32,000 nt of DNA from an archaeon (lineage in GTDB: Archaea > Iainarchaeota > Iainarchaeia > Iainarchaeales > 1-14-0-10-31-34). Positions 9,027-22,635 of this stretch are shown piece by piece. Numbering within the stretch: the stretch's first letter is position 1; each line of letters begins with the position of its first letter. Under the pieces are notes generated by a model that worked only from the letters and a program-made list of their open reading frames with translations, did no database searches and had not been told where the DNA came from. The stretch is from positions 1 to 32,000 of the forward strand of contig JAJRVL010000002.1 in the NCBI GenBank assembly GCA_024277355.1. The letters run 5' to 3'. The position numbers and the translations under genes were made by a program.

Positions 9027-9770
9027 TTAACTTTCGTCGTAGGCTTCTTCTATTCCGTGGACTTTCATTCCGTTTTTGGTTATTGTTACTGGATGTAAGT
9101 CTTCTGAGTGTTTTGTTGAACGCATTTTTCTTATGTGGACTGTTCTGTTTGTTCCGCCGCCGCCTATTCCTGAATAATGTAATACTATTACTCCATCTAC
9201 TACATATTCTTCTACATCATATCTTCCGAATTTGGCTGCACCTTCTTGTATTTCTGAAGTCATAATTGAAGTTACTCCAATTCTCATTAACATATAACTT
9301 AATTTTAGTATTGCTTTTCTTGTTTCATTTTCGTTTTCAAAATTAAAGCCTAATGCAGGAATTGAATCAATTACTGCTCTTTTTGCTCCAATTCTTTTTG
9401 TTACTCTCATTATTTCTAGTAATAATTTATCTAAATCAAAACCTGTCATTGGTAAAGAAAATTCTTCTTCTGACGGCATACCAATTCTTGCAACACTTCC
9501 GTCTATTATGCTGATTAATTTTTTTTCTTCTAATTTTTTTAAATCCCAGCCAAATCTTGTTACGTCTTCTCTTATTAATTCTGGTCTTTCATCTAAAGTT
9601 ACATATATTCCTGGTTCATTGTATTTTACGGCGCCATTGTAAATATACTGCATTGAAAAAATTGTTTTTCCGGTTCCACACGCTCCTGATACAAGCATTG
9701 TTCTTTTTTCAGGAAAGCCTCCTTCAATTAAATCATCTAATCCGCTTATTCCAGTTTTAACTCTTTTCAT
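9027..9770 (-). CDS. single-domain KaiC/RadA-like (RecA-superfamily) ATPase
   Basis: GISGLDDLIEGGFP, Walker A GACGTGKT, Walker B-like RAVIDSI, and a C-terminal IRKMRSTKHS region as in COG0467-type KaiC homologues. I prefer the ATG at 9770, preceded by AAGGTG plus a 6-nt spacer; the GTG at 9779 is part of that SD. Confidence 0.85.
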   Translation of the reverse strand: MKRVKTGISGLDDLIEGGFPEKRTMLVSGACGTGKTIFSMQYIYNGAVKYNEPGIYVTLDERPELIREDVTRFGWDLKKLEEKKLISIIDGSVARIGMPSEEEFSLPMTGFDLDKLLLEIMRVTKRIGAKRAVIDSIPALGFNFENENETRKAILKLSYMLMRIGVTSIMTSEIQEGAAKFGRYDVEEYVVDGVIVLHYSGIGGGGTNRTVHIRKMRSTKHSEDLHPVTITKNGMKVHGIEEAYDES

Positions 9771-9836
9771 TTTTAACACCTTTTTCTATAATTATTGTTT
9801 TTGAATTAATAAACTTTTGTTTTTGTGTTTTTTCAG

Positions 9837-11663
9837 TTAAATCCTGCTTACTTCTTTTATTCCTTCAATTTTATTTATTTTTTCAAGGATTTTTCCTATG
9901 GTTTGTGGTTTTTTTGTTTTAAGTGTTATAGTGCAGTTCACTGTTTTGTTTTCTACTTTTGCATTAGTTGAAATTATTTTTCCTTTTAATGAAGTAACTG
10001 CATCAAGTATTTCTGTAAGTAAGTTTACTTTTTCTTTTGCCTGAATTTTTATTTTTGTATTTAATTCTTTTTGGCCGATCATTTTCCAGTTTATTGGAAT
10101 TATTTTTTTTCTGTTTTCTCTTTTAAGGTTTACACAGTTTTCGTTATGAACGATTAATTTTCTTTTTGTGGTTTTTATTGCAAAAATTTTGTTTTCAGGA
10201 AGCGGATTACAGCATTTGGCTATTTTAATTGATTCAATTATTTTTTTTGATATTTCTGGTTTTATTATTTTTGGTTTTACTTCTTGGGATATTTTTAATA
10301 TTTGTTTTATTTTTGCTTTAGCTTTTTTTGTTTTTACCATCACTAACCATTGTCTTTTTGGAAACTGTTTTTTTGAAGTTATTATTTCAACTAAATCTCC
10401 GTTTTCCAGTTTATGGTCTAATTTTACTATTTTGCCGTTTACTTTTGCTTTTTCACATTTGTTTCCCATGTTTGAGTGAACTGCATAAGCAAAATCTAAT
10501 GGTGTTGAATCAGGAGTCAGTTCAATTATGTCGGCTTTTGGTGTTAAAGTAAATATTTTTTTTTCTTCAAATCTTAATTTTAATGTGTCAAGTATTTTTT
10601 TTGTTTTATTTTTTCTGTGCCATTCAATTAATTCTTTTGCCCATGTTAATTTAGAGTCAAATTCTTTGTCTTTTTTTACTTCTTTGTAGGCCCAGTGTGC
10701 AGGAAGGCCTTCTTCTGCTTCTGCGTTCATTTCAAAGGTTCTTATTTGTGTTTCAAATATTTTTTTATCTTTGGTTTTTAAGTCTGTGTGGATTGAACGG
10801 TAATTATTTTTTTTTGGGGTTGCAATATAATCATCAAATGAGTTAAGCAGTGGTTCATACATTGAATGGATTATGCCTAAAATTAAATAACATTCTTTTA
10901 TTGTATTGCAGAGTATTCTCACTGCAATTAAGTCATGTAATTCGTTTGCTTTGCAGTTTTTTTTCTTCATTTTACTGTATATTCCGAAAAAGTTTTTGGT
11001 TCTGCCGATTATTTTTGCATTTATTTTATCGTCTTTAAATCTTTTTTTTATTTCATTAATTATTTTTTTTAAGTCTGTTTCTCTTTCTTTTCTTTTCTTT
11101 TTTAATGCTCGTTTTAGTTTGTTGTATTCTTTTGGGTGTTCAATTTTAAATGCTCTGTCTTCTAACTCCCATTTTATTTCATTTAATCCAAGTTTTTGGC
11201 TGATTGGAAGATATACTTCTCTTATTTTTTTTGCAAGAATTTTATCTGGTTCTTTTACATTTCTTAATTCAGATAATTTTAATGAAAGTGCAATTATTAT
11301 TGTTCTGATGTCTTTTGTTGTAGCAAGAATTATTTTGCTTAATGTTTCTGAAGAAAAATTTTTGCTTTGGGATTCAATTTTTTTTATTTTTCTTAGCTCT
11401 TCAACAATATTTGTTATGTCTTCATTGAATTCTTTTGTTATTTCTTCTTTTTTTGTTTTGGTTTCGCATAAAAATGTTGCAGCTAAAGGGTTTCCTTTTA
11501 TTCCTAATGAATTCAGAATATAAGCGCTGTTTAATGAATTTTGAAATTGCTTTTGATCAATAATTTTATCTGAATATTCTATTGCTTTTTTTATTTGAGA
11601 GTAATAAGGTCCTTTTTTTATTGAGTTCTTGAATTTTTCAACTGAAATGTTTTCATATTCCAT
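9837..11663 (-). CDS. long RelA/SpoT homologue (RSH): degenerate HD domain - synthetase - TGS - Cys-rich (ZFD/CC) - ACT
   Basis: Synthetase motifs GRTKNFFGIYSKM, HDLIAVRIL, NYRSIHT, ETQIRTFEMNAEAEEGLPAHWAYKE. TGS domain IFTLTPKADIIELTPDSTPLDFAYAVHSNMG...GDLVEIIT. CC motif AKCCNPLPENKIFAI...VHNENCVN. ACT-like C-terminus. The hydrolase HD/ED residues are replaced (TFLCETKT where LLHDvvEDT is expected; LSLKLSELRN where ADRLHNMR is expected). Confidence 0.85.
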   Translation of the reverse strand: MEYENISVEKFKNSIKKGPYYSQIKKAIEYSDKIIDQKQFQNSLNSAYILNSLGIKGNPLAATFLCETKTKKEEITKEFNEDITNIVEELRKIKKIESQSKNFSSETLSKIILATTKDIRTIIIALSLKLSELRNVKEPDKILAKKIREVYLPISQKLGLNEIKWELEDRAFKIEHPKEYNKLKRALKKKRKERETDLKKIINEIKKRFKDDKINAKIIGRTKNFFGIYSKMKKKNCKANELHDLIAVRILCNTIKECYLILGIIHSMYEPLLNSFDDYIATPKKNNYRSIHTDLKTKDKKIFETQIRTFEMNAEAEEGLPAHWAYKEVKKDKEFDSKLTWAKELIEWHRKNKTKKILDTLKLRFEEKKIFTLTPKADIIELTPDSTPLDFAYAVHSNMGNKCEKAKVNGKIVKLDHKLENGDLVEIITSKKQFPKRQWLVMVKTKKAKAKIKQILKISQEVKPKIIKPEISKKIIESIKIAKCCNPLPENKIFAIKTTKRKLIVHNENCVNLKRENRKKIIPINWKMIGQKELNTKIKIQAKEKVNLLTEILDAVTSLKGKIISTNAKVENKTVNCTITLKTKKPQTIGKILEKINKIEGIKEVSRI

Positions 11664-12516: not shown

Positions 12517-12536
12517 AAATGCAGTTAACTGCATTT
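12517..12536. terminator. perfect 20-nt palindrome between convergent tpiA and the pilin gene (bidirectional terminator candidate)
   Basis: AAATGCAGTT|AACTGCATTT, flanked by an A-run on the left and T's on the right. It overlaps the last codons and the stop of the pilin gene. Confidence 0.5.
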
Positions 12537-12977
12537 TCCAATTAATCCTTTGTCGCCTAACTGTACTAATCCATTGACTTTCTTTGAATTGTAAGTAAAT
12601 GAAACATTGTAGTCAAATCCGCTTCCTGCGTTTCCGCATGCAGTTAATCCTGTTAATGAAACTAATTCAGATTCGCCTGCGTTAAATGAAACACTTGAAC
12701 TTAATCCGGCTATTCCGTCAATGTTTAAGTCAGTTAAAGTCAGTTTGTTTGCTGAAATATTCTGCACTTCAATTTCTGCTGTTGTTCCGCTGAATTTGAA
12801 TTCCTTTATTGAGAAAGGAGAAGTGCTTTGCCAGTATGCTCTTGACTGTTGTTCGGTTAATCCTCCTGTTAATCCAGGAACCCAACCCATTACACCTACA
12901 ACAACTAATGCAATGACAATTATTACTGCAAGAATAATTAAGTATTCTGTTGTTCCTTGTGCTTTTCTTCCAATCAT
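12525..12977 (-). CDS. archaeal type IV pilin-like protein with class III signal peptide (candidate major pilin)
   Basis: MIGRKAQG|TTEYLIILAVIIVIALVVVGV: a short basic leader ending in G, an acidic residue shortly after, then a ~20-aa hydrophobic helix, followed by a Ser/Thr/Gly/Asn-rich beta-type domain. It has the strongest SD in the locus (GGAGG plus an 8-nt spacer) and is the last gene of the operon. Confidence 0.8.
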   Translation of the reverse strand: MIGRKAQGTTEYLIILAVIIVIALVVVGVMGWVPGLTGGLTEQQSRAYWQSTSPFSIKEFKFSGTTAEIEVQNISANKLTLTDLNIDGIAGLSSSVSFNAGESELVSLTGLTACGNAGSGFDYNVSFTYNSKKVNGLVQLGDKGLIGKCS

Positions 12978-13047: not shown

Positions 13048-13977
13048 TTAGACAATTGAAAGAAATCCTGAAATTACTGTTTTAAATGCTGTAAAAAGAA
13101 TAAATGATGCAATAAAAATTATTGGAGAATACTTTAATCCCAATTTTATTTTTCTTTCAGTTAAAACTCCTATAAATAAACTTGCAAGAATTGAATTTCC
13201 TAATAATAAAATCACTGCAATATTGTGCATGAAATTTGAAGTTATTACGATTTCTGCACTAAGAAAACCAATATTAAGGCTTTCATCAACTGCACTTTGT
13301 CCTTGAATTGAATTAATCATTTCAAGGAACTGAACGGAAATTGACATCAACAAAGGGGTTGCTACAACTATTACAAATAAAACAAATAACACATACATTT
13401 TTGTTCCTGAAATCATTTCTTTTTTCATTTCCTGTGTTTTTGATATGTCTTCTGAGCTTGCTTCAAGCAGTTTAGCCAGTTTTCCGCCGGACCTCATGCT
13501 TTCAGAAAGAAATGCAACGCTTTCTTTTAGAATTCTTGAATCAATTTTTTCGGATAATTGTTTTAATGAATTTCTGAATGAGTCTATTCCTAAACTTTTT
13601 GTGCTTATTGTTTTTATTTCTTCAGCTAAAGGGCCAAATTCTTCTCTTGAACTGTTTTTAAATGCACTAAAAGGAGTCATTCCAGATCTTAAGTTTGATG
13701 CAACTAATAAAAGAAAGTCTGGAAGGACTGTTTCAACTCTTTTTACTCTGTCGTCAATTTGGTGTTCTAAATGAAAATAATAAATAAATTCAGTTAAAAT
13801 AAAAAGAATTATTCCTAAAATAAATGAAAATAATATTTGAATTGTGAATTCATTTAATGAAAAATATTTACCTAAACTTAATGGAATTAAAAAACCAATT
13901 ATAAAAAACAATAATGCAAGCATTATTCTTTTACCTAACCATTCATCTATGTCTTCGTTTATCCCTGCATAATCCAT
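13048..13977 (-). CDS. type IV filament platform protein, single T2SSF (FlaJ/TadC-like) domain
   Basis: 309 aa. N-terminal TM segments, then a cytoplasmic helical domain (VETVLPDFLLLVASNLRSGMTPFSAF...LSESMRSGGKLAKLLE), then C-terminal TM helices, which is the T2SSF topology. The reading frame stays open for 31 codons upstream of the ATG (to 14070). Confidence 0.8.
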   Translation of the reverse strand: MDYAGINEDIDEWLGKRIMLALLFFIIGFLIPLSLGKYFSLNEFTIQILFSFILGIILFILTEFIYYFHLEHQIDDRVKRVETVLPDFLLLVASNLRSGMTPFSAFKNSSREEFGPLAEEIKTISTKSLGIDSFRNSLKQLSEKIDSRILKESVAFLSESMRSGGKLAKLLEASSEDISKTQEMKKEMISGTKMYVLFVLFVIVVATPLLMSISVQFLEMINSIQGQSAVDESLNIGFLSAEIVITSNFMHNIAVILLLGNSILASLFIGVLTERKIKLGLKYSPIIFIASFILFTAFKTVISGFLSIV

Positions 13978-14042
13978 TTTAATTAAAATTTTTTTTCTTG
14001 TTTTTTCAGGAATGATTTCTGAAAGTCTTTTTTGTATTAATT

Positions 14043-14927
14043 TTATAAAATCACCTTTGGTTTTCTGTTTTTAACAAAACCAATTAATATTATTTGAACT
14101 ATAAATGCAAATAAAATTGTAATAATTACATGCATTTCAGATATGTCTGATCCTCCAAAAGAAGAAAGAATTATCATAAAAGTAATTCCTAAAGTTGGAA
14201 TTGCGGCAGCTAAAAGCAGATACATTAAAATCCATAAATTTAGTTCAGCTGAATAATTTTTTATTGCTCTTAATTGATTTGCAGTTAAAGTGTTAATTGC
14301 AGTTTCTAATGCACCTGCAACACTTGCCCCGCTTTTAATTGATGCAGTAATCTGCCAGGCAGCTTTTTTCATGTATTCTGATTTTGTTTTTAATGCAAGT
14401 TTTTCTAATGCTTTTGCTTCAGAGATTCCTGAATTAATGTCCTGAATTAATTCATTGAATTCTTCTGATACTATCCCATAATCTGCTTTAGCAATGTTTT
14501 TTATTGTGTTAAATAAAGGTATTCCTGATTTAACCTGAATTAACATGCTTTTTAATGCAAAAATTAAGTTTTGGTCAATTCCAAAAGCAATTCTTTTTGA
14601 AATTATTCCTGGATAAATAATATGCAAAAAGAAAAATAACACAAAAAACATTATTCCTGCAATAACATTTAATGGAAATGCGTTTGCAATTATTCCGTCT
14701 CTTAAAAAAATAAGGGCAGTTAAAAAAATAAAGAAAAAAATCCCGTAAATTAATCCAGATAAAAAACTTGCAGTAAGATACTCTTCAGTGCTTATATTTA
14801 ATTCTGCTTTTTTTATTTCATATTTAACTCCGACAAAAACTTTCTGAAAAAAATCTCCAATAAATAAAATTCGTTTATTTAATTTTTTAGCCTGTTCGAT
14901 TGAAAACAACATGAATTTTACTCTCAT
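14043..14927 (-). CDS. type IV filament platform protein, single T2SSF (FlaJ/TadB-like) domain
   Basis: 294 aa. TM helices flank a cytoplasmic helical domain (IFALKSMLIQVKSGIPLFNTIKNIA...ITASIKSGASVAGALE), and it ends in TM helices. It is a paralogue of the downstream gene. Confidence 0.8.
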   Translation of the reverse strand: MRVKFMLFSIEQAKKLNKRILFIGDFFQKVFVGVKYEIKKAELNISTEEYLTASFLSGLIYGIFFFIFLTALIFLRDGIIANAFPLNVIAGIMFFVLFFFLHIIYPGIISKRIAFGIDQNLIFALKSMLIQVKSGIPLFNTIKNIAKADYGIVSEEFNELIQDINSGISEAKALEKLALKTKSEYMKKAAWQITASIKSGASVAGALETAINTLTANQLRAIKNYSAELNLWILMYLLLAAAIPTLGITFMIILSSFGGSDISEMHVIITILFAFIVQIILIGFVKNRKPKVIL

Positions 14928-14936
14928 TTTTTATCA

Positions 14937-16187
14937 CTACATTTTATTGAAGTCAAGTTTTTTTCCCACTGCTTCCAGAACTAAATCCTTGTTGCTGTAA
15001 TATTTGTTCATTACTTCTCCTACTTTGTTTACGTCATTTATTTTTTTTTCTATCATCCATTCAAGGATTGTTTTTCTTTCTTCTAAATCTTTAGTTATTT
15101 CCTGTTCGGTTAATCCTGTGTGTAAATTTAATTCTCCGTAAAATTTTGTTGGTTCATCTATTTTATCCCAGGTGTCTGTTCTTGGGCTCCATCTGTAAAT
15201 TGTGTTAATTGAAATGCTTCCTTCGTGGCTTCCTGTGTCTATTTCGCTTATTTCCATTGTTCTTCTTTTGTTTGTTTTTCTGTCTCTGTATTGAACTAAA
15301 ACTAAATGTAATGCTTCAACTTCTAATGCAGGAATTTCAATTGGCGGTTCAGTTAATCTTCTGACTAACTGCATTCCTGAATCGGCATGCATTGTTGAAT
15401 AAACTGAATGTCCTGTATGCATTGCTTCAAATAATACTTCTGCTTCTTTTCTTTGCCTCATTTCTCCTAAAATTATTCTGTCTGGACGCATTCTTAATGC
15501 AGACATCATTAAGTCAAACATGCTTATTTCTCCTACGCCTTCTGGGTTAGGGTTTCTTGTTGTTAATGGAACCCAGTTCCATTTTAAGTTTTCAGGAAGA
15601 ACTAGTTCTCTTACATCTTCTATTGTAATTATTCTGTGGTAATTTGGAATCATTGCACATAAAGTGTTTAGTGCAGATGTTTTTCCTGAGGCGGTTGAAC
15701 CTGCTACCATTAAATTCATTTCATAATGCAGTGCCATCCACAAAAAGGCAGCCATTTCTGAGTTCATTGTGTGTTTTTCAGGAGAAATAAAGTCTGTTAT
15801 AGTCCAGGGTCTTCTTGAAAATTTTCTTATTGTAATTGTATTGCCTAAAGATGAAACAGGAAATAATGTTGCATTAACTCTGTCGCCTGTAATTAAATGT
15901 GCGTCAAGAATTGGATTTAAGTTTGTTATTTCTCTTCCGATTTTTCTTGCAATTTGTGCAGCATAATTTTCAATTAATTCTTCTGATTCAACATTAATGT
16001 TTGTTTTAAGCCAGCCAAATTCTCTGTGATACACTGCAATAGGTGTCTTAGATGAATTAATTGTAATTTCTTCTAATAAGTCATCTTTAATTAATACTTC
16101 TAATTCTCCCATTCCATACATTTCATGCAGTAAAATTCCTGCAAGTTTTGTTGTTGTAGATTTTTCATTTTCAGGAAAATATTTCAT
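14937..16187 (-). CDS. FlaI/TadA/VirB11-family type IV filament assembly ATPase (core as delimited by the first ATG)
   Basis: Walker A GSTASGKTS, Walker B/Asp box RPDRIILGEMR, His box GHSVYSTMHA. The true N-terminus almost certainly lies upstream (see feature 16188-16448 and the finding). Confidence 0.9.
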   Translation of the reverse strand: MKYFPENEKSTTTKLAGILLHEMYGMGELEVLIKDDLLEEITINSSKTPIAVYHREFGWLKTNINVESEELIENYAAQIARKIGREITNLNPILDAHLITGDRVNATLFPVSSLGNTITIRKFSRRPWTITDFISPEKHTMNSEMAAFLWMALHYEMNLMVAGSTASGKTSALNTLCAMIPNYHRIITIEDVRELVLPENLKWNWVPLTTRNPNPEGVGEISMFDLMMSALRMRPDRIILGEMRQRKEAEVLFEAMHTGHSVYSTMHADSGMQLVRRLTEPPIEIPALEVEALHLVLVQYRDRKTNKRRTMEISEIDTGSHEGSISINTIYRWSPRTDTWDKIDEPTKFYGELNLHTGLTEQEITKDLEERKTILEWMIEKKINDVNKVGEVMNKYYSNKDLVLEAVGKKLDFNKM

Positions 16188-16448
16188 TAAAGTTTTATTT
16201 ACTATTTGTATAAATTTTTGTTTTAATTTTAAGTTTTCTTCTTCTGAGTCAATTGAAACACTTTTTGCAATTTCGTCTTTTATTTCTTCAAGGAATTTTT
16301 TTGTTGAATAGTCTGCTTTGTCAAATTCAAGGAAATATAAAGGGCGTTTTTCTTTTTCTATTGTTTTTATTTTAACTGTTGCATTTGATTCTTCTTTTAT
16401 TTCGTATGTGTTTATAGTTTTAGTTGCTTTAATTAATTTTTTTTTTCT
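16188..16448 (-). other. 87 in-frame sense codons upstream of the ATPase ATG with no ATG/GTG/TTG; probable N-terminal domain of the ATPase
   Basis: My manual translation reads RKKKLIKATKTINTYEIKEESNATVKIKTIEKEKRPLYFLEFDKADYSTKKFLEEIKDEIAKSVSIDSEEENLKLKQKFIQIVNKTL, running directly into MKYFPENEK. An in-frame TGA sits at 16449-16451. The frame is -1 relative to ORF 16433-16660 across the A10 run at 16437-16446. Confidence 0.65.
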
Positions 16449-16660
16449 TCAGGAATTTCCTGTTCAAGTCTAATAAAAGGTTTAGATAAAACATTTGCGG
16501 GATAAATTACATTTAATATTCCTGTTTTTTCCATTACTTTTGCTGTTAATTCAACTTTGTTTTTTTCCCAGTTTAATTGTTTTGATATTTGTTCAATTGA
16601 AAGCTTTTTTTCGTCTTTAAGCAGTTCAACCATTTCACTTATTTTTGTTTTTAGTATCAT
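16433..16660 (-). CDS. small winged-helix-like protein, or the N-terminal module of the ATPase if the frames are joined
   Basis: 75 aa: MILKTKISEMVELLKDEKKLSIEQISKQLNWEKNKVELTAKVMEKTGILNVIY. This helix-turn-helix-like pattern is my inference and is not verified. The ORF ends inside the A10 run (GAA GAA AAA AAA AAT TAA). Confidence 0.55.
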   Translation of the reverse strand: MILKTKISEMVELLKDEKKLSIEQISKQLNWEKNKVELTAKVMEKTGILNVIYPANVLSKPFIRLEQEIPEEKKN

Positions 16661-16702: not shown

Positions 16703-17569
16703 CTAACTAAACTGTTTTAGTTCCATTAATGAATTGGAATTTAAGTCTGTTTGAATGTAATTTAAGTCAATGTCTGCATAAAGCTTTAAGCTTGAATTAA
16801 AGTCAATTGCAGGCATAATTGATTTAAATGAAAGATTAATTTTATTTTGGTTGATTGTTTCATTTTCAATTAACATTGCATTATTTTTTCCTTTAAAAGT
16901 CCCAATATTAATTTTAATTTTGTCGTCTCCGTCAGCTGAAAAAATTATTTCTATTTTGTTTTTTAAAGTTGAATCCATTAATAATATTTCATGTTTTTCG
17001 TTTAATGCATTTCCATCAATATAATTAAAGTTTACAATTAAATCAGGGTTTAATGCATTTAATGGTCTTGAAACAGAAACCGAACTTCCTGAAACAGTTA
17101 AATTTAAATCCATTGAAGTCATGTTTGTGTCTCCTAAAGCATAAAAGAAAACTGAATTTTTGTTTGGAGTAAAATCATATTCGTAAACTAGTTTATTGCT
17201 GAATTTTAATGGAATATTTTGGTTTAATCTGTCAACATTAATTTTAATTGAAGAATTATTTATGGCAGAATAACTTGTTTCAGCAAACTCTTTCATTTTT
17301 ATGATTCTCTGCATTTTATTGAAATCTGAAGGAATTATTTCATTAAAAGTTATTTCAAGATTATTTCCTTTATTTACTTTAATGGAAGTTCCTAAAATTT
17401 TGTTTAAGTCAAAACTTAAATCATCTTTAATAAATTCCATTTTAGAATATTTTTTTATTTCTCCTGATGAATAATTTCTTGAATTAACATTTTCTAAATA
17501 AAACATTGAAAATAAAAGCATTGAAGAAAGTAAAAGAATTGCACTAAAGCTTATTACATACCCTTTCAT
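16703..17569 (-). CDS. pilin-like/pilus-associated protein with prepilin-type N-terminus (288 aa)
   Basis: MKG|YVISFSAILLLSSMLLFSMF followed by an Asn/Ser/Ile-rich beta-type domain. Its start overlaps the upstream stop (ATGA at 17566-17569). I recognise no family. Confidence 0.6.
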   Translation of the reverse strand: MKGYVISFSAILLLSSMLLFSMFYLENVNSRNYSSGEIKKYSKMEFIKDDLSFDLNKILGTSIKVNKGNNLEITFNEIIPSDFNKMQRIIKMKEFAETSYSAINNSSIKINVDRLNQNIPLKFSNKLVYEYDFTPNKNSVFFYALGDTNMTSMDLNLTVSGSSVSVSRPLNALNPDLIVNFNYIDGNALNEKHEILLMDSTLKNKIEIIFSADGDDKIKINIGTFKGKNNAMLIENETINQNKINLSFKSIMPAIDFNSSLKLYADIDLNYIQTDLNSNSLMELKQFS

Positions 17570-17982
17570 TTTTTCACCTTAAACCAGGCTTTTAATTCAG
17601 CCCAATAAAATTTTTCTCCATAAAAAAAACTTCTTTTAGTTGAAATTTCAGTTAAAGCATTTTTTTTGCATCCTTTTTTTGAAGTAGTATTTAATGCACT
17701 TGAATTATTATCATAATCATATATATTTAATTCAAAACACAAATTTTTTGTTGTTTTATTTAAGTATTTTGAGATTTCTTTGTTTTTGTTTTCTTTTACT
17801 GCTTCTTCAAATTTCCCGCTTTTTTCTAATACAGTTAAAACATCCTCTGAAATTAATGCTAATTTAGTTTCATTTAATGAACTGAATTTGCTTTCAGCAA
17901 AATTTCCGCTTATTGCTACAAGCAATGCAAAAGAAATAATTAATGCAATTACTGCATCAATTGAAATAATAAACCCTTTCAT
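17566..17982 (-). CDS. minor pilin-like protein with class III signal peptide (138 aa)
   Basis: MKG|FIISIDAVIALIISFALLVAISG. It shares an ATGA start/stop overlap with the gene on each side. Confidence 0.65.
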   Translation of the reverse strand: MKGFIISIDAVIALIISFALLVAISGNFAESKFSSLNETKLALISEDVLTVLEKSGKFEEAVKENKNKEISKYLNKTTKNLCFELNIYDYDNNSSALNTTSKKGCKKNALTEISTKRSFFYGEKFYWAELKAWFKVKK

Positions 17983-18482
17983 TTAAACACTCCGAAAATA
18001 AATTTTCTTTCTTTTTCATTTAACAAAACATATCTTTCAATTACAATTGTTTTGTTTTCAGCTGAAGGAAAAACTCCGAATTGTTTTAATGGTTGGTCGT
18101 TCATTGAAGTTACTTTAAAATAAAAATCGTATTTTTGTAAACCTAAAATTTCTTTTATTTCATTGTATTTAGCTGCATTTAAGTCAATTAATTTATTTAC
18201 TTTATTTTCATCTAAAATATTTCTTTCTTTTGCTAAGCCAATTGAATTAATGTTTAAGTCATTTAATGTTTCCCAGGAATTTGGCTGGCCTGAAGTCGAA
18301 ATTAAAATTTGAGATGCATTAACTGCTTTTTCCTGCATTTCAAAATAATATTCTTCTTCATTAAGTGAATTCTGAATTAAACCAAAAGATGAAAATGAAA
18401 TAACTAAAATAAAAATTAAAGCAGTAAAAGAAACAATAAAATCAGTGGTAAAAACCTGCCCTTTACAGTTCTTCAATTTCAA
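17979..18482 (-). CDS. minor pilin-like protein with class III signal peptide (167 aa)
   Basis: MKLKNCKG|QVFTTDFIVSFTALIFILVISFSSFGLI. Confidence 0.65.
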   Translation of the reverse strand: MKLKNCKGQVFTTDFIVSFTALIFILVISFSSFGLIQNSLNEEEYYFEMQEKAVNASQILISTSGQPNSWETLNDLNINSIGLAKERNILDENKVNKLIDLNAAKYNEIKEILGLQKYDFYFKVTSMNDQPLKQFGVFPSAENKTIVIERYVLLNEKERKFIFGVFK

Positions 18483-18506
18483 TCACTCCCTTTATGTTTT
18501 CTATTC

Positions 18507-18974
18507 TTATTTCATTTGCATTAACTTTTGAAATAAAAATAATTTTTTTGTTAAAAGTGAAGTTGAAATAAACTGGCCTTGTCTGAATTTTATTTTAACG
18601 GAATTTTCTTCAAATTCAATTTCAAAATCATAATTTTTTGTTATTATTGTTTTGCTTCCTTCTCCTGAAATATAAATGCCGTTAATGTTTCTTGCAATTT
18701 TTTCGCTTAAGGTTTTTGCTTTGATTTTTTCTGAATTAAAATCAATGTTTTTTTTTTGTTCAACTGAAACTGCAACAACTAAAGAAAACATTAAGAAGAG
18801 CAAAACAAGAGTTATTACAAATTCAGCTGAAATCTGCCCTCGCGGTTGCGTCCGCGAGTAACGCGTGCTATCTGCGATAGCACTGATTTTATTTCCGCTT
18901 TCGAGCGGGAGAACCGAGGCACGATTTCGCTGTTGCTCAATCCTGCTGTCATACTTTTTTGTTTTTTTTTTCAT
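18507..18974 (-). CDS. minor pilin-like protein with an atypically long, GC-rich leader (155 aa as drawn)
   Basis: The pilin-type motif PRG|QISAEFVITLVLLFLMFSLVVAVSV starts only at residue ~45. The only in-frame canonical start is the ATG at 18974. The leader codons are GC-rich and atypical for the window. Confidence 0.6.
   Translation of the reverse strand: MKKKTKKYDSRIEQQRNRASVLPLESGNKISAIADSTRYSRTQPRGQISAEFVITLVLLFLMFSLVVAVSVEQKKNIDFNSEKIKAKTLSEKIARNINGIYISGEGSKTIITKNYDFEIEFEENSVKIKFRQGQFISTSLLTKKLFLFQKLMQMK
18839..18908. other. three tandem GC-rich hairpins (candidate structured RNA / cis-regulatory element)
   Basis: CTCGCGG-ttgcgt-CCGCGAG (18839-18858), GTGCTATC-tgc-GATAGCAC (18865-18883), CCGCT-ttcg-AGCGG (18895-18908). 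All stems are perfect and sit in a local GC-rich island (about 18836-18950) within an AT-rich background. The existence of the hairpins is certain; their function is unknown. Confidence 0.5.
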
Positions 18975-18979
18975 TTATT

Positions 18980-21163
18980 TCACGGAGTCCTTTGAACAAT
19001 ATTAATATCATCAACATAAAAGTAATCTCTTCTGCCGCTCATTCCGGCATCAAATGCAATTCTAAAGTTGTTTGACAAAGGATATGCATTTAAGTCAAAT
19101 GAATAAAAATGATAAGTGTTGTCTGAGTCAGCTGAAGTAAAAATTTTTATTATAGTCCAGATAAACCCGTTAGAAGAAATGCTAACTCTTGTGGTGTCTC
19201 CTGATTCAAATGAATTAACTTTAGCCCAAAATTCCAGTCTTGGATTAGTATACGCACTTAAATCAACTGCTCTTTCAGCATATCCTGTGCTTCTTCTTAA
19301 TCTTAAATGATTTGGAGAACTATAAGGGGTTCCTCCGCTTCTGATTGAACTGTCTCCTGAATGAGTCCATGCATTTAGCCATCCTGTTCCTGAACTCCAG
19401 CTTGTATCAGGGAAAGTGTGGAATGCAATTATTATTGGGCCAGTTGAATTAATTATTATGGTTCTGTTTTCATCACTGCTTCCTGTATTTGGAACTGAGT
19501 AATCATCAGTGCAGTTTACATCCCAATAATAAGTTCCGTTTGAAGCAAAAGTTTTAGTAAAACTTTGAGTAATTCCTTCAGTTATTGAATTGTCTGTTTG
19601 GTCTATTATTCCATTAATAATCAATTCACAAAAATTAATTCCTGAATCAACATCATTTACCGTATAGTCAAACTGAACACTAAAACTGTTTGAAGTATAA
19701 CCTGTTGCAGGGCTTTCAAGCATTATTGTTGGCGGAGTGCTGTCTATTGTATAATAAGTTGAAGTAGTATAAGTGCTTCCGTCGCTAAATTCAAATGTAA
19801 TTCTAAAGTATTCTCCGTCATTATTAACTATTTCATCAAATCTTAATTCATTTCCTCCGCTAAAAGAAGTTGACGCATTAATTGTAAAATCTGTTACATT
19901 AATCCATTCTCCTGCATTTGCTGTTCCGTTCCAATAATCAGTTCCATCAAATCTTACTCTTTCTATAATAGCTGAATCCTGATCTGTTTCATTCCAGTCC
20001 CATACAATAATTCTTGAAATTGTAAGGCTTGTATTAATACTGGTGTTTTCTATTGTCCAGTTTCTTAATCTGTCTCCACCTCCATTAAATGACGCAGTAC
20101 TCCATGAGAAATTAAAGTTGTCTGACATATTGCTGACAGTAACATTTAATGAAATAAAATCTGAATTAATTCCATCTGAAGCAGTAACAGTTCCTGTGTC
20201 ACTGTTTGAACCCAAGGGAACATCAATAGTAACTGTAATTTGCTGGCAAGTATTTCCTGTTAAAGAATTAATTGTTGGAATTGCCTGAACCCAATCTCCT
20301 GCGTCTCCATTAGATGAAGTAAAAACAATATTAGTTAATGCAGTTGAAGTTGTATTGCATACTTGAAAGTTATTTGAATCTGAATAACCTGAATCAATTG
20401 AAGGACTCCATAAATCAGGAAAAATCATTAAAGGCTGGTTGCTTTCTCCGACAATTACTTCTAAAGTTAAAGGAACAATTATTTGTTTTGCTCCGTCAAT
20501 TGTATTTACATCAAAAATTAATTCGCCTGAATAATTTCCTACAGCAAATAAATTAGAAGTAAAATTTAAATCAATTCCAGTGTTTGAGTCAGCAGGAACA
20601 ACAAAAGAATTACTGCTTAATTGCAAAGTAACATTAGCTGAAGTCCAGACATAACTAACTGAAACACTTGCGTTTCCGCTTGTATTATTTATTACTTTAA
20701 TATTTTCTATTGCACTTGTATTCTGTGCTATAGTTGAATAAATACTTCCTTTGTCTGTTTCAATTTGAATATCTCCAATTAAAACATAACCTTCATAAGA
20801 AGTAATCCAAATCCAATGGCCCCCTGATTCAGTTGGAATGCTTCCTGTTACTTCAACTTGTGATTCAGAAATTACATCTGTTCCATTAATGTTTAGTCTT
20901 ATTGTTTTGTCTGAAATTGAACTTTTGTTTTCATCTATTCCTGATGGAATTGAAATAAAAATTTGTTTTTTTGTTCCAGGGCCAGAAACGAAAACTTCGT
21001 TAGCTGTACTTGCAAGTTTATTAACTGTATTTTGTGCTTCAGAATTTGCTTTAGCATAATTAATTGAAGTTATTTCATTGTTTGATACAGAAATAATTAA
21101 TCCAAGTACTACCATTGAAACTGCAAGAATAATTAATAATTCAACTGACGCCTGCCCTTTCAT
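18980..21163 (-). CDS. large pilin-like surface protein / candidate tip adhesin (727 aa) with class III signal peptide
   Basis: MKG|QASVELLIILAVSMVVLGLII, then a Ser/Thr/Asn/Gly-rich beta-type sequence. It includes an Ig-like segment (DSTPPTIMLESPATGYTSNSFSVQFDYTVNDVDSGINFCEL) and a C-terminal jelly-roll-like segment (LEFWAKVNSFESGDTTRVSISSNG...DYFYVDDINIV). I counted about two dozen N-x-S/T sequons by hand. Confidence 0.75.
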   Translation of the reverse strand: MKGQASVELLIILAVSMVVLGLIISVSNNEITSINYAKANSEAQNTVNKLASTANEVFVSGPGTKKQIFISIPSGIDENKSSISDKTIRLNINGTDVISESQVEVTGSIPTESGGHWIWITSYEGYVLIGDIQIETDKGSIYSTIAQNTSAIENIKVINNTSGNASVSVSYVWTSANVTLQLSSNSFVVPADSNTGIDLNFTSNLFAVGNYSGELIFDVNTIDGAKQIIVPLTLEVIVGESNQPLMIFPDLWSPSIDSGYSDSNNFQVCNTTSTALTNIVFTSSNGDAGDWVQAIPTINSLTGNTCQQITVTIDVPLGSNSDTGTVTASDGINSDFISLNVTVSNMSDNFNFSWSTASFNGGGDRLRNWTIENTSINTSLTISRIIVWDWNETDQDSAIIERVRFDGTDYWNGTANAGEWINVTDFTINASTSFSGGNELRFDEIVNNDGEYFRITFEFSDGSTYTTSTYYTIDSTPPTIMLESPATGYTSNSFSVQFDYTVNDVDSGINFCELIINGIIDQTDNSITEGITQSFTKTFASNGTYYWDVNCTDDYSVPNTGSSDENRTIIINSTGPIIIAFHTFPDTSWSSGTGWLNAWTHSGDSSIRSGGTPYSSPNHLRLRRSTGYAERAVDLSAYTNPRLEFWAKVNSFESGDTTRVSISSNGFIWTIIKIFTSADSDNTYHFYSFDLNAYPLSNNFRIAFDAGMSGRRDYFYVDDINIVQRTP

Positions 21164-21213: not shown

Positions 21214-21435
21214 TTAATAAAGAGTACTTAATACTTTTTTTGCTTTGGAATAAGTCCAGAAAGTTGCACCTAAAGCACACATTGAAACAAAATAAAAGAC
21301 AACAGCTGAGAATTCATATCCTGCAATTTGTGCTAAAATTCCTTCAAGAAAAGTTAAAATTGAAAAACTTATAAGTAATGCTCCGCTTAAAAGAAAAAAA
21401 GCAACTTTTATTCCTTGTTGTAATACACTATCCAT
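21214..21435 (-). CDS. small membrane protein, two predicted TM helices (73 aa)
   Basis: Hydrophobic stretches VAFFLLSGALLISFSILTFL and AVVFYFVSMCALGATFW. It lies 9 nt downstream of the KaiC-like gene on the same strand. Confidence 0.5.
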   Translation of the reverse strand: MDSVLQQGIKVAFFLLSGALLISFSILTFLEGILAQIAGYEFSAVVFYFVSMCALGATFWTYSKAKKVLSTLY

Positions 21436-21444
21436 AAAACCAAC

Positions 21445-22440
21445 TCAAAATATTTCTATGTCTGCATAAATTTTTATGCCTTCCTTTTCAAAATTTAATG
21501 CACAAACCTTGTTTGTGTGTTTGGTTCCGCGCATTTTAAGTATTTCAAGTGAATGAACTCTTACATCTTTTTCTTCTTTTTTTTCATAATATAATGAAAT
21601 TACTGCATCAACTAAAAATCCCACTGAACCTTTTGCTGTTTCAGCTTCTTTTGGAGACATTTCGCTTATAATTATTGAAGTACAGTTCCATTTCCTTAAT
21701 AACTCAAAAAATTTCAAAATGTTTTCTCTTTGCTGGTATTCGTCTCTGAATAATAAAGAATAAGATGTAATTGAATCAATTACTAATCTTTTGGCTCCCA
21801 TTTGATTTATTGCATCTCTTATTGGCCCGCCACCCTGATCTAATAATCTTCCAACCTGATGCGGTTTGTATTCAAGAACTCTGAATAAACCTTTTTTTTC
21901 TAAGTCTTCAAAATCCCAGCCATATTCTGCGTTATGCCTGTAATATGATTCTTTGCTTTCTTCAAAGCTGATTAATATTCCTGGTTCATTGTATTTTACG
22001 GCTCCGTAATATAAAAACTGTAATCCAAAAGTAGTTTTTCCTGTTCCTGCACTTCCTGCAACTAAAACAGTTGAATTTTTTTCTATGCCTCCTTCAATTA
22101 ATTCATCAAAACCAAAAATGCCTGAAGGAATTCTTTCTAATTGGTTTAATTTTTTTACTGGTTTTTTTGGTTCATTGAATTCGTTTGTTTTTTCTTCAGT
22201 TTTTATTTCTTTAATTGATTTGTCTTTTTCTGTTTTTGATTCAGTTGTTTCTAATTCTTTTTTTGTTTCTTCATTTAATGTTTTAATTGGTTTTTCTTCT
22301 TTTTTTGTTAGTTCTTTTTTTGAAGGGATTTTTGTTTCAAGTTCAGCAATGCTTGGTTTTTCTTTTATTTCTTTTTCTGACTTAATTTTATTTTTTTTTA
22401 AGTCAAGATTGCTTTCAATTACAACTTTTTTTTTTTGCAT
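21445..22440 (-). CDS. KaiC/FlaH-like RecA-superfamily ATPase with a ~105-aa Lys/Glu/Thr-rich N-terminal extension
   Basis: The C-terminal ~225 aa carry GIFGFDELIEGGI, Walker A GSAGTGKT, the KaiC-type ISFEES, Walker B RLVIDSITS and LKMRGTKH. The N-terminus is low-complexity (KKELTKKEEKPIKTLNEETKKELETTESKTEKDK). It is a paralogue of 9027-9770. Confidence 0.85.
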   Translation of the reverse strand: MQKKKVVIESNLDLKKNKIKSEKEIKEKPSIAELETKIPSKKELTKKEEKPIKTLNEETKKELETTESKTEKDKSIKEIKTEEKTNEFNEPKKPVKKLNQLERIPSGIFGFDELIEGGIEKNSTVLVAGSAGTGKTTFGLQFLYYGAVKYNEPGILISFEESKESYYRHNAEYGWDFEDLEKKGLFRVLEYKPHQVGRLLDQGGGPIRDAINQMGAKRLVIDSITSYSLLFRDEYQQRENILKFFELLRKWNCTSIIISEMSPKEAETAKGSVGFLVDAVISLYYEKKEEKDVRVHSLEILKMRGTKHTNKVCALNFEKEGIKIYADIEIF

Positions 22441-22612
22441 TATTCTTCACTTTTTCCTTTAATAAAAAGAGTATTATTCTTTAAATAACTGTTTGTTTTT
22501 GCGTCTAAACAAAAAAAGACAACTTTTTTTTCAGATAAAAAAACAGCATGACTGAACAAAGTGAAGTCGTGCATCGTGCTTAAACGGTGAAACGTTTAAA
22601 AAAAAGAAAAAG

Positions 22613-22635
22613 AAAAAAGGCAGGGTGCCTTTTTT
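22613..22635 (-). terminator. hairpin plus T-run directly after the stop of the 119-aa membrane protein gene
   Basis: AAAAAAGGCA-ggg-TGCCTTTTTT. On the minus-strand RNA the stem is followed by a long U-rich tract. Confidence 0.5.

Follow-up and report, generated by a model that had tools for sequence, protein, structure and literature searches.

The 32,000-nt stretch of archaeal DNA examined here (the window; contig JAJRVL010000002.1, positions 1 to 32,000) carries a row of type IV pilus (T4P) genes headed by a gene for a single-domain KaiC-type ATPase, which we named KaiC-A. Our results suggest that KaiC-A is most likely the dedicated partner of one type IV pilus of a DPANN order, serving it as a nucleotide-dependent accessory or regulatory ATPase. 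Both gene order and presence and absence across genomes tied KaiC-A to one subtype of pilus motor, named ATPase-1, a link about as close as that between ArlH and ArlI, and because it was tied to genomes with this one motor, it is probably the pilus's own ATP-driven switch. The window has a GC content of 28% and belongs to a genome of 1.13 Mb that is 96% complete and encodes six KaiC paralogues, KaiC-A included, and six T2SSE ATPases; its proteins have homologues that carry the labels Diapherotrites, 'ainarchaeum' or Micrarchaeota, which places it among the DPANN. The gene row and its border are as follows (aa, amino acids; TM, transmembrane helix).

22603..22635, minus strand: hairpin (10-bp stem) and T-run, terminator of the upstream 4-TM gene and 5' border of the unit
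22479..22488, minus strand: TTATTTAAAG, putative TATA-box-like element read from the sequence, 39-48 nt upstream of the ATG
21445..22440, minus strand: KaiC-A gene (331 aa, single KaiC domain), first in the pilus gene row
21214..21435, minus strand: two-TM mini-protein, 73 aa, starting 9 nt past the KaiC-A stop
16703..21163, minus strand: five pilin-like genes (727, 155, 167, 138 and 288 aa) with class III signal-peptide-like N-termini
14937..16660, minus strand: ATPase-1, a PilB/FlaI-type T4P ATPase (PF00437, T2SSE, E-value 2.6e-31)
13048..14927, minus strand: two TadC/T2SSF platform genes (294 and 309 aa; PF00482, E-values 5.9e-14 and 1.1e-13)
12525..12977, minus strand: class III signal peptide pilin, 150 aa (PF04021, E-value 6e-4)

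The KaiC-A gene opens this same-strand row, since the preceding 4-TM gene is cut off from it by the terminator hairpin and T-run, and the intergenic gaps downstream of KaiC-A range from -4 to 70 nt. This agrees with an earlier note on the same DNA, which had placed a KaiC-type gene at the head of a pilus operon. Among 60 relatives, matches to KaiC-A were bimodal: 23 genomes held one copy each with at least 54% identity (E-value at most 1e-81), while all other KaiC matches reached 41% at most. Phylum-wide, the weakest orthologue was still 50% identical. In a phylogenetic tree, a branch with support of 100/99 split 24 KaiC-A sequences from 18 other KaiC paralogues, and keeping KaiC-A as one clade cost 0.44 log-likelihood units in the approximately unbiased (AU) test (p 0.495), so that monophyly was not rejected. 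The locus therefore has its own KaiC clade and not a generic paralogue, as the earlier note had supposed.

Gene order was then compared over 20 kb around the 23 orthologues, of which two lay on contigs that end right after KaiC-A, leaving 21 usable loci. KaiC-A stood first and co-directional before the same pilin-like set, with the same genes in the same order, in 18 of the 21 loci, representing 12 families. The row continued with ATPase-1, TadC and pilin in 16 of these 18 loci, the 150-aa pilin at the end also being kept; one of the remaining contigs (L037) stops short of this part and the other (L022) breaks off inside the first pilin gene. The three loci that differ (families f20 and f30) had KaiC-A unlinked, with the ATPase-1 orthologue elsewhere in the genome, both genes being kept. 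The two outcomes named beforehand as contrary to the proposal, a lack of synteny with the pilus genes in relatives and clustering with generic KaiC homologues, were not what we found.

ATPase-1 likewise formed a sharply separated orthogroup among the 60 relatives (members had 59% identity or more, all other matches no more than 55%), and both genes were scored in 215 genomes of the phylum. KaiC-A was present in 81 and ATPase-1 in 83 of them; 75 genomes had both, 6 KaiC-A only, 8 ATPase-1 only and 126 neither, which is the co-occurrence of the KaiC subtype with a FlaI-like ATPase that the earlier note had proposed to look for. All 14 discordant genomes were 55-94% complete, and in at least two of them ATPase-1 lies about 3 kb from a contig end, so that KaiC-A would fall off the contig. 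Carriers of the two genes all belong to one order. Within each family of mixed state (f1, f3, f5, f20, f24 and f27) KaiC-A and ATPase-1 were either both present or both absent, and these within-family contrasts are independent of one another. A genome without ATPase-1 retained a KaiC-A remnant (G042:C18:10526-10822; aa 233-331 at 60% identity, interrupted by two TAA stops), which fits a joint loss of both genes.

Judged from its sequence, KaiC-A is a KaiC-type ATPase of RecA fold that consists of one domain and is competent for catalysis, and it probably forms a hexamer. The PF06745 KaiC model matched aa 104-327 with an E-value of 6.8e-60 (202.7 bits, where the cut-off is 26.6; 229 of the 231 model positions were covered), which places the protein in the KaiC family of RecA-superfamily ATPases (COG0467). 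The Walker A, FEES and Walker B motifs that the earlier note had read in this single domain were all in place, and residue conservation was scored over 117 orthologues.

22033..22056, minus strand: Walker A, GSAGTGKT, aa 129-136; G129, G132, G134 and K135 invariant
21955..21966, minus strand: FEES with the Glu pair E160/E161, aa 159-162; F159 and E161 invariant, E160 conserved in at least 90%
21772..21786, minus strand: Walker B, LVIDS, aa 219-223; D222 and S223 invariant
21529..21537, minus strand: K302-M303-R304 within LKMRGT, Lys/Arg finger; all three invariant

The FEES motif aligned with the FEE of the KaiC CI domain and LKMRGT with the LKLRGT/LKFRGT of CI, and we take K302-M303-R304 to act as an arginine finger, as in hexameric sites of the KaiC type, on the basis of general knowledge of KaiC. 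A further motif specific to the orthogroup, KPHQ...GGG at aa 192-205, was almost invariant in the same orthologues. Since the catalytic residues were invariant or nearly so, the ATPase site is under selection and an ATP-dependent switch is plausible. The residues aligned to S431/T432 of KaiC CII are Gly-Phe in KaiC-A, and no KaiB was found in the host genome, so a clock-type phosphorylation cycle is unsupported. Of the ATP or phosphorylation switch proposed earlier, the ATP-dependent form is thus retained and the phosphorylation form is not.

The AlphaFold2 model of KaiC-A had a predicted local distance difference test (pLDDT) score above 90 over aa 100-331. A phmmer search of the PDB returned KaiC proteins first (best E-value 2.3e-60, the CI domain fitting best), followed by PH0186 and PH0284, and Foldseek with the model placed PH0186 and KaiC CI on top (E-value 1.6e-24, TM-score 0.90 on the target). 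KaiC-A fell below every NCBIfam KaiC subfamily cut-off, the best archaeal subfamily, TIGR03880, giving 154.8 bits against a cut-off of 249. Circadian KaiC proper (TIGR02655 and NF006799) was considered and rejected, as KaiC-A has one domain only and not CI plus CII, and scored 156 bits against 408 and 107 against 546, respectively.

The gene that follows KaiC-A (ORF 21214-21435) codes for a protein with two hydrophobic helices, in line with the 73-aa two-helix membrane protein described earlier at a distance of 9 nt. It had no Pfam or NCBIfam match and a word-index homology search returned a single near-identical match; the family was recovered by position in the loci of relatives. In 10 genomes from 3 families a homologue follows KaiC-A directly, at a gap of -4 to 50 nt, and (E/Q)G and YF(V/I) form a pattern conserved among these proteins. 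Other families have, on the flanks of the locus, genes for DUF7504, a KaiC-like protein that lacks the P-loop, together with a divergent second KaiC (KaiC-B). DUF7504/DUF7090 genes occur in most families outside the window's genus and are absent from the window's own locus; at the loci L021, L023-L029 and L031-L036, one to three of them (about 185-230 aa) stand beside KaiC-A or inside the pilus operon. A second pilus locus in the window's own genome (G000 contig C9 53043-60609; L004, L013) comprises a type-2 ATPase, TadC pieces and a pilin, and is followed by this genome's KaiC-B orthologue (232 aa) and then by a DUF7504 protein of 280 aa whose N-terminus is rich in Lys. Because loci of the type-2 ATPase also have a KaiC nearby (for at least 19 of 39 related genomes, a KaiC-family match lay no more than 10 kb away), the pairing of KaiC with pili is a general habit of the order. 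In family f30, a conserved gene of 269-272 aa that had no Pfam match follows the KaiC-A gene unlinked from the pilus (L038 14026-14835, L039 4800-5618), and its product may be another partner of KaiC-A.

KaiC-A differs from a bare KaiC domain by a Lys/Glu-rich region, which the earlier note had recognized and had called a tail; the region is there, but it is an N-terminal extension.

22141..22440, minus strand: Lys/Glu-rich disordered extension, aa 1 to about 100, 51% charged residues

Lys and Glu make up 50% of the first 80 aa, whereas the proteins of this genome have a median of 20% and reach 47% at the 99th percentile; this ranks the N-terminus in the top 6 of 876 proteins of the genome; 24 of the 876 carry such a Lys/Glu-rich 80-aa window. 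A wrongly called start codon behind the region was ruled out: there is no in-frame ATG, GTG or TTG from the ATG at 22440 to the start of the KaiC domain, so the region must be translated. In the AlphaFold2 model it was without secondary structure, with pLDDT below 50. Across 135 orthologues the extension measured 2-327 aa (median 66) and was rich in Lys and Glu, with zero conserved columns, and no Pfam domain was found in the extensions of the longest orthologues; one long-extension entry (P0016) looks like a chimeric contig. These features are those of a flexible tether or of low-complexity growth that is tolerated, and the extension is dispensable in some lineages. Lys/Glu-rich stretches were also seen in several cytoplasmic pilus-locus proteins, including another T4P ATPase and a DUF7504 protein, and Lys/Glu-rich proteins are encoded at G000 C2:516260-517975, C9:53043-54809 and C9:59767-60609.

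In the window the ATPase-1 gene is split into a 75-aa N-terminal open reading frame, winged helix-turn-helix-like with a weak match to PF25212, and one of 416 aa, by a shift of one nucleotide within a stretch of ten A.

16188-16660, minus strand: ATPase-1 break region, with the A10 run at about 16437-16448

The relatives have one unbroken gene of 565-637 aa, longer in some families. Judged by sequence, the shift may stem from an assembly error, from a recent mutation or from phase variation. In relatives belonging to family f10 (e.g. L034 2888-5644, L032 and L035) ATPase-1 reaches 800-1100 aa owing to long N-terminal extensions, and these genomes carry the block of ATPase, TadC and pilin genes in the opposite orientation to the block of KaiC-A and pilin genes. 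Elsewhere in the window (9027-11663, minus strand), a 608-aa long RelA/SpoT homologue (HD_4, RelA_SpoT, TGS and ACT domains) lies directly upstream of a stand-alone 250-aa KaiC, a pair that is kept beside the pilus locus in the genus.

The mechanism that we favour, to which we give a probability of about one half, is that a KaiC ring able to hydrolyse ATP binds to the pilus motor and acts there as a nucleotide switch, as an independent analogue of ArlH and with the two-TM protein as an anchor where present. KaiC-A would be made together with the pilins and would dock at the cytoplasmic face, on the PilB-type ATPase-1 or on the TadC platform, where its nucleotide state would presumably gate or stimulate pilus assembly. 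Such an action would be similar to that of ArlH on ArlI, exerted by an independently recruited KaiC paralogue. The translationally coupled 73-aa protein would hold KaiC-A at the membrane in three families, and the variable Lys/Glu-rich N-terminus may provide a flexible tether or spacer. A bolder version, in which archaeal type IV motors recruited a KaiC paralogue at least twice independently as an indispensable partner (ArlH and a KaiC-A tethered to the membrane by the two-TM protein) and KaiC-A, whose hydrolytic site is complete in contrast to that of ArlH, toggles the single PilB-type ATPase, e.g. between assembly and disassembly or retraction, seems doubtful to us; if true, it would give these cells a switch that PilT-less archaeal pili are not known to have.

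Several observations weigh against the docking mechanism. KaiC-A and the ATPase are encoded five genes apart; the two-TM partner is missing in most families, which have DUF7504 genes there instead; and the N-terminal extension is not essential, as it is down to 2-13 aa in some orthologues. The co-occurrence of KaiC-A with ATPase-1 is overstated by a Fisher p-value, related genomes not being independent. Finally, CirA of Haloferax volcanii, the only non-archaellar KaiC-like protein considered here that has been tested genetically, acts on the transcription of motility genes. This last point leads to the main rival, a signalling regulator of the CirA or 'KaiC hub' type, in which KaiC-A, with DUF7504 or KaiC-B for example as its partner, would control the expression of the pilus operon or of further surface genes and would not act on the assembled motor; we consider it possible, if somewhat unlikely. 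It is in agreement with the interpretation of T4P-linked KaiC genes as regulators (Makarova et al., PMC4858521) and with the lowering of arl gene transcription by CirA, directly or indirectly and with pleiotropic effects (PMC10983859). The presence of KaiC-B and DUF7504 beside KaiC-A in most families also looks like a multi-component module, and the lack of KaiB means that another output partner would be needed. On the other hand, KaiC-A leads the structural genes co-directionally, unlike the divergently transcribed or stand-alone cirA (PMC10983859), it is coupled to a membrane mini-protein, and no DNA-binding domain is present in KaiC-A or adjoining it in the window, while its one-to-one tie to one ATPase subtype fits a part of the machine at least as well. 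Another role, that of an unfoldase or chaperone-like ATPase that matures or inserts the very large pilin-like adhesins (727-1600 aa), would account for the fact that in almost every locus KaiC-A directly precedes the giant pilin-like gene, for the predicted active RecA-type hexamer site and for the charged disordered N-terminus, which could bind clients. We regard it as improbable, as the co-occurrence with the ATPase persists where KaiC-A is unlinked from the pilins and, to our knowledge, no member of the KaiC family serves as an unfoldase or chaperone for pilins.

The two remaining explanations are contradicted by the data. With so many KaiC paralogues and T2SSE ATPases in one genome, a generic KaiC might come to lie beside pilus genes by chance, but the synteny, the co-occurrence and the separation of the orthogroup from its paralogues leave this reading very little room. 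Orthology to ArlH/FlaH, which would make the locus a reduced or transitional archaellum, is even harder to credit. The gene set does resemble an H-I-J core in outline (a KaiC-like protein, a FlaI-like ATPase and a FlaJ/TadC-like protein), and the ArlH branch joins the KaiC tree on the KaiC-A side. However, that branch is about 10 substitutions per site long, so that rooting the tree on ArlH was uninformative and was given up, and an attachment inside the KaiC-A orthogroup is not supported given the AU result. The ArlH model NF052589, whose cut-off was passed by all control genomes with archaella, gave KaiC-A 34.6-35 bits against a cut-off of 215, fifth of the six host KaiC paralogues, four of the other five scoring higher. 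No FlaH entry appeared in the PDB phmmer search at E-values up to 1e-5. True ArlH occurred in 4 of 151 sampled genomes of the phylum, all in another family of the same class, and was barely alignable: phmmer gave the KaiC-A domain about 15 bits for two of the four and left the other two unmatched at an E-value of at most 1e-3. The host genome had no PF01917 archaellin and neither ArlH nor ArlI above cut-off, and the ArlI model scored the locus ATPase (294 bits) about as highly as three paralogues (292, 288 and 274 bits). Binding of ArlH to the hexameric ATPase ArlI depends on nucleotide, and ArlH does not hydrolyse ATP (PMC8978795), whereas KaiC-A retains the Glu pair. The description of the protein as FlaH-like is therefore not supported, its sequence and fold matches in the PDB being KaiC CI and PH0186, and the suggested architecture intermediate between pili and archaella is likewise not supported, given the lack of archaellin and of ArlH or ArlI above cut-off in this genome.

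Taken together, our results make KaiC-A a concrete case within an abundant group, since archaeal KaiC-like ATPases are numerous and the job of almost none is known; such a case would bear on how archaeal pili are turned on, turned off or retracted. KaiC-A and ATPase-1, together with the small membrane partner, form a defined set for binding, ATPase and structural work. DPANN archaea depend on contact with host cells, and their pili are likely attachment organs, so the control of these pili matters for their lifestyle.

Among known systems, ArlH/FlaH resembles KaiC-A in being a KaiC-like protein of one RecA-fold domain that is devoted to a single type IV filament machine. KaiC-A differs in not being an orthologue, in keeping the catalytic Glu pair, in its disordered N-terminal region and two-TM neighbour, and in the lack of archaellins and of ArlCDE/X. 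With the cyanobacterial KaiC CI domain and PH0186 of Pyrococcus horikoshii (PDB 2ZTS) it has in common Walker A, the EE pair, Walker B and the K/R finger; unlike cyanobacterial KaiC it consists of one domain and not CI plus CII, has no Ser/Thr at the CII phosphorylation sites, and has neither KaiB nor a clock context. CirA, encoded in the arl cluster, is likewise a non-ArlH KaiC-like ATPase beside type IV filament genes, with a genetic effect on the filament system; by gene context, which is the basis of this comparison and not sequence, KaiC-A differs in being co-directional with the pilins and heading them. The closest group consists of the T4P-associated KaiC ATPases. KaiC-family genes (arCOG01171, arCOG01174, arCOG01175 and others) were reported in predicted archaeal T4P operons in 2016 (Makarova, Koonin & Albers, PMC4858521), so the general idea was already known and the premise of the earlier note, that only the archaellum uses a KaiC-like subunit, does not hold. 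Clade 2 T4P loci often have two tadC genes (Makarova et al., 2016, PMC4858521), and the locus described here has the same composition, one KaiC gene in a predicted pilus operon with two tadC genes; by its operon context and its co-occurrence with the pilus motor KaiC-A belongs to this set. Our literature search found no paper on the DPANN subfamily of KaiC-A. Compared with the set as described, KaiC-A is an order-specific DPANN subfamily that lies below all NCBIfam KaiC subfamily cut-offs, and what it adds is the one-to-one co-occurrence with an ATPase subtype, the operon-leading place, the disordered N-terminus and the two-TM partner.

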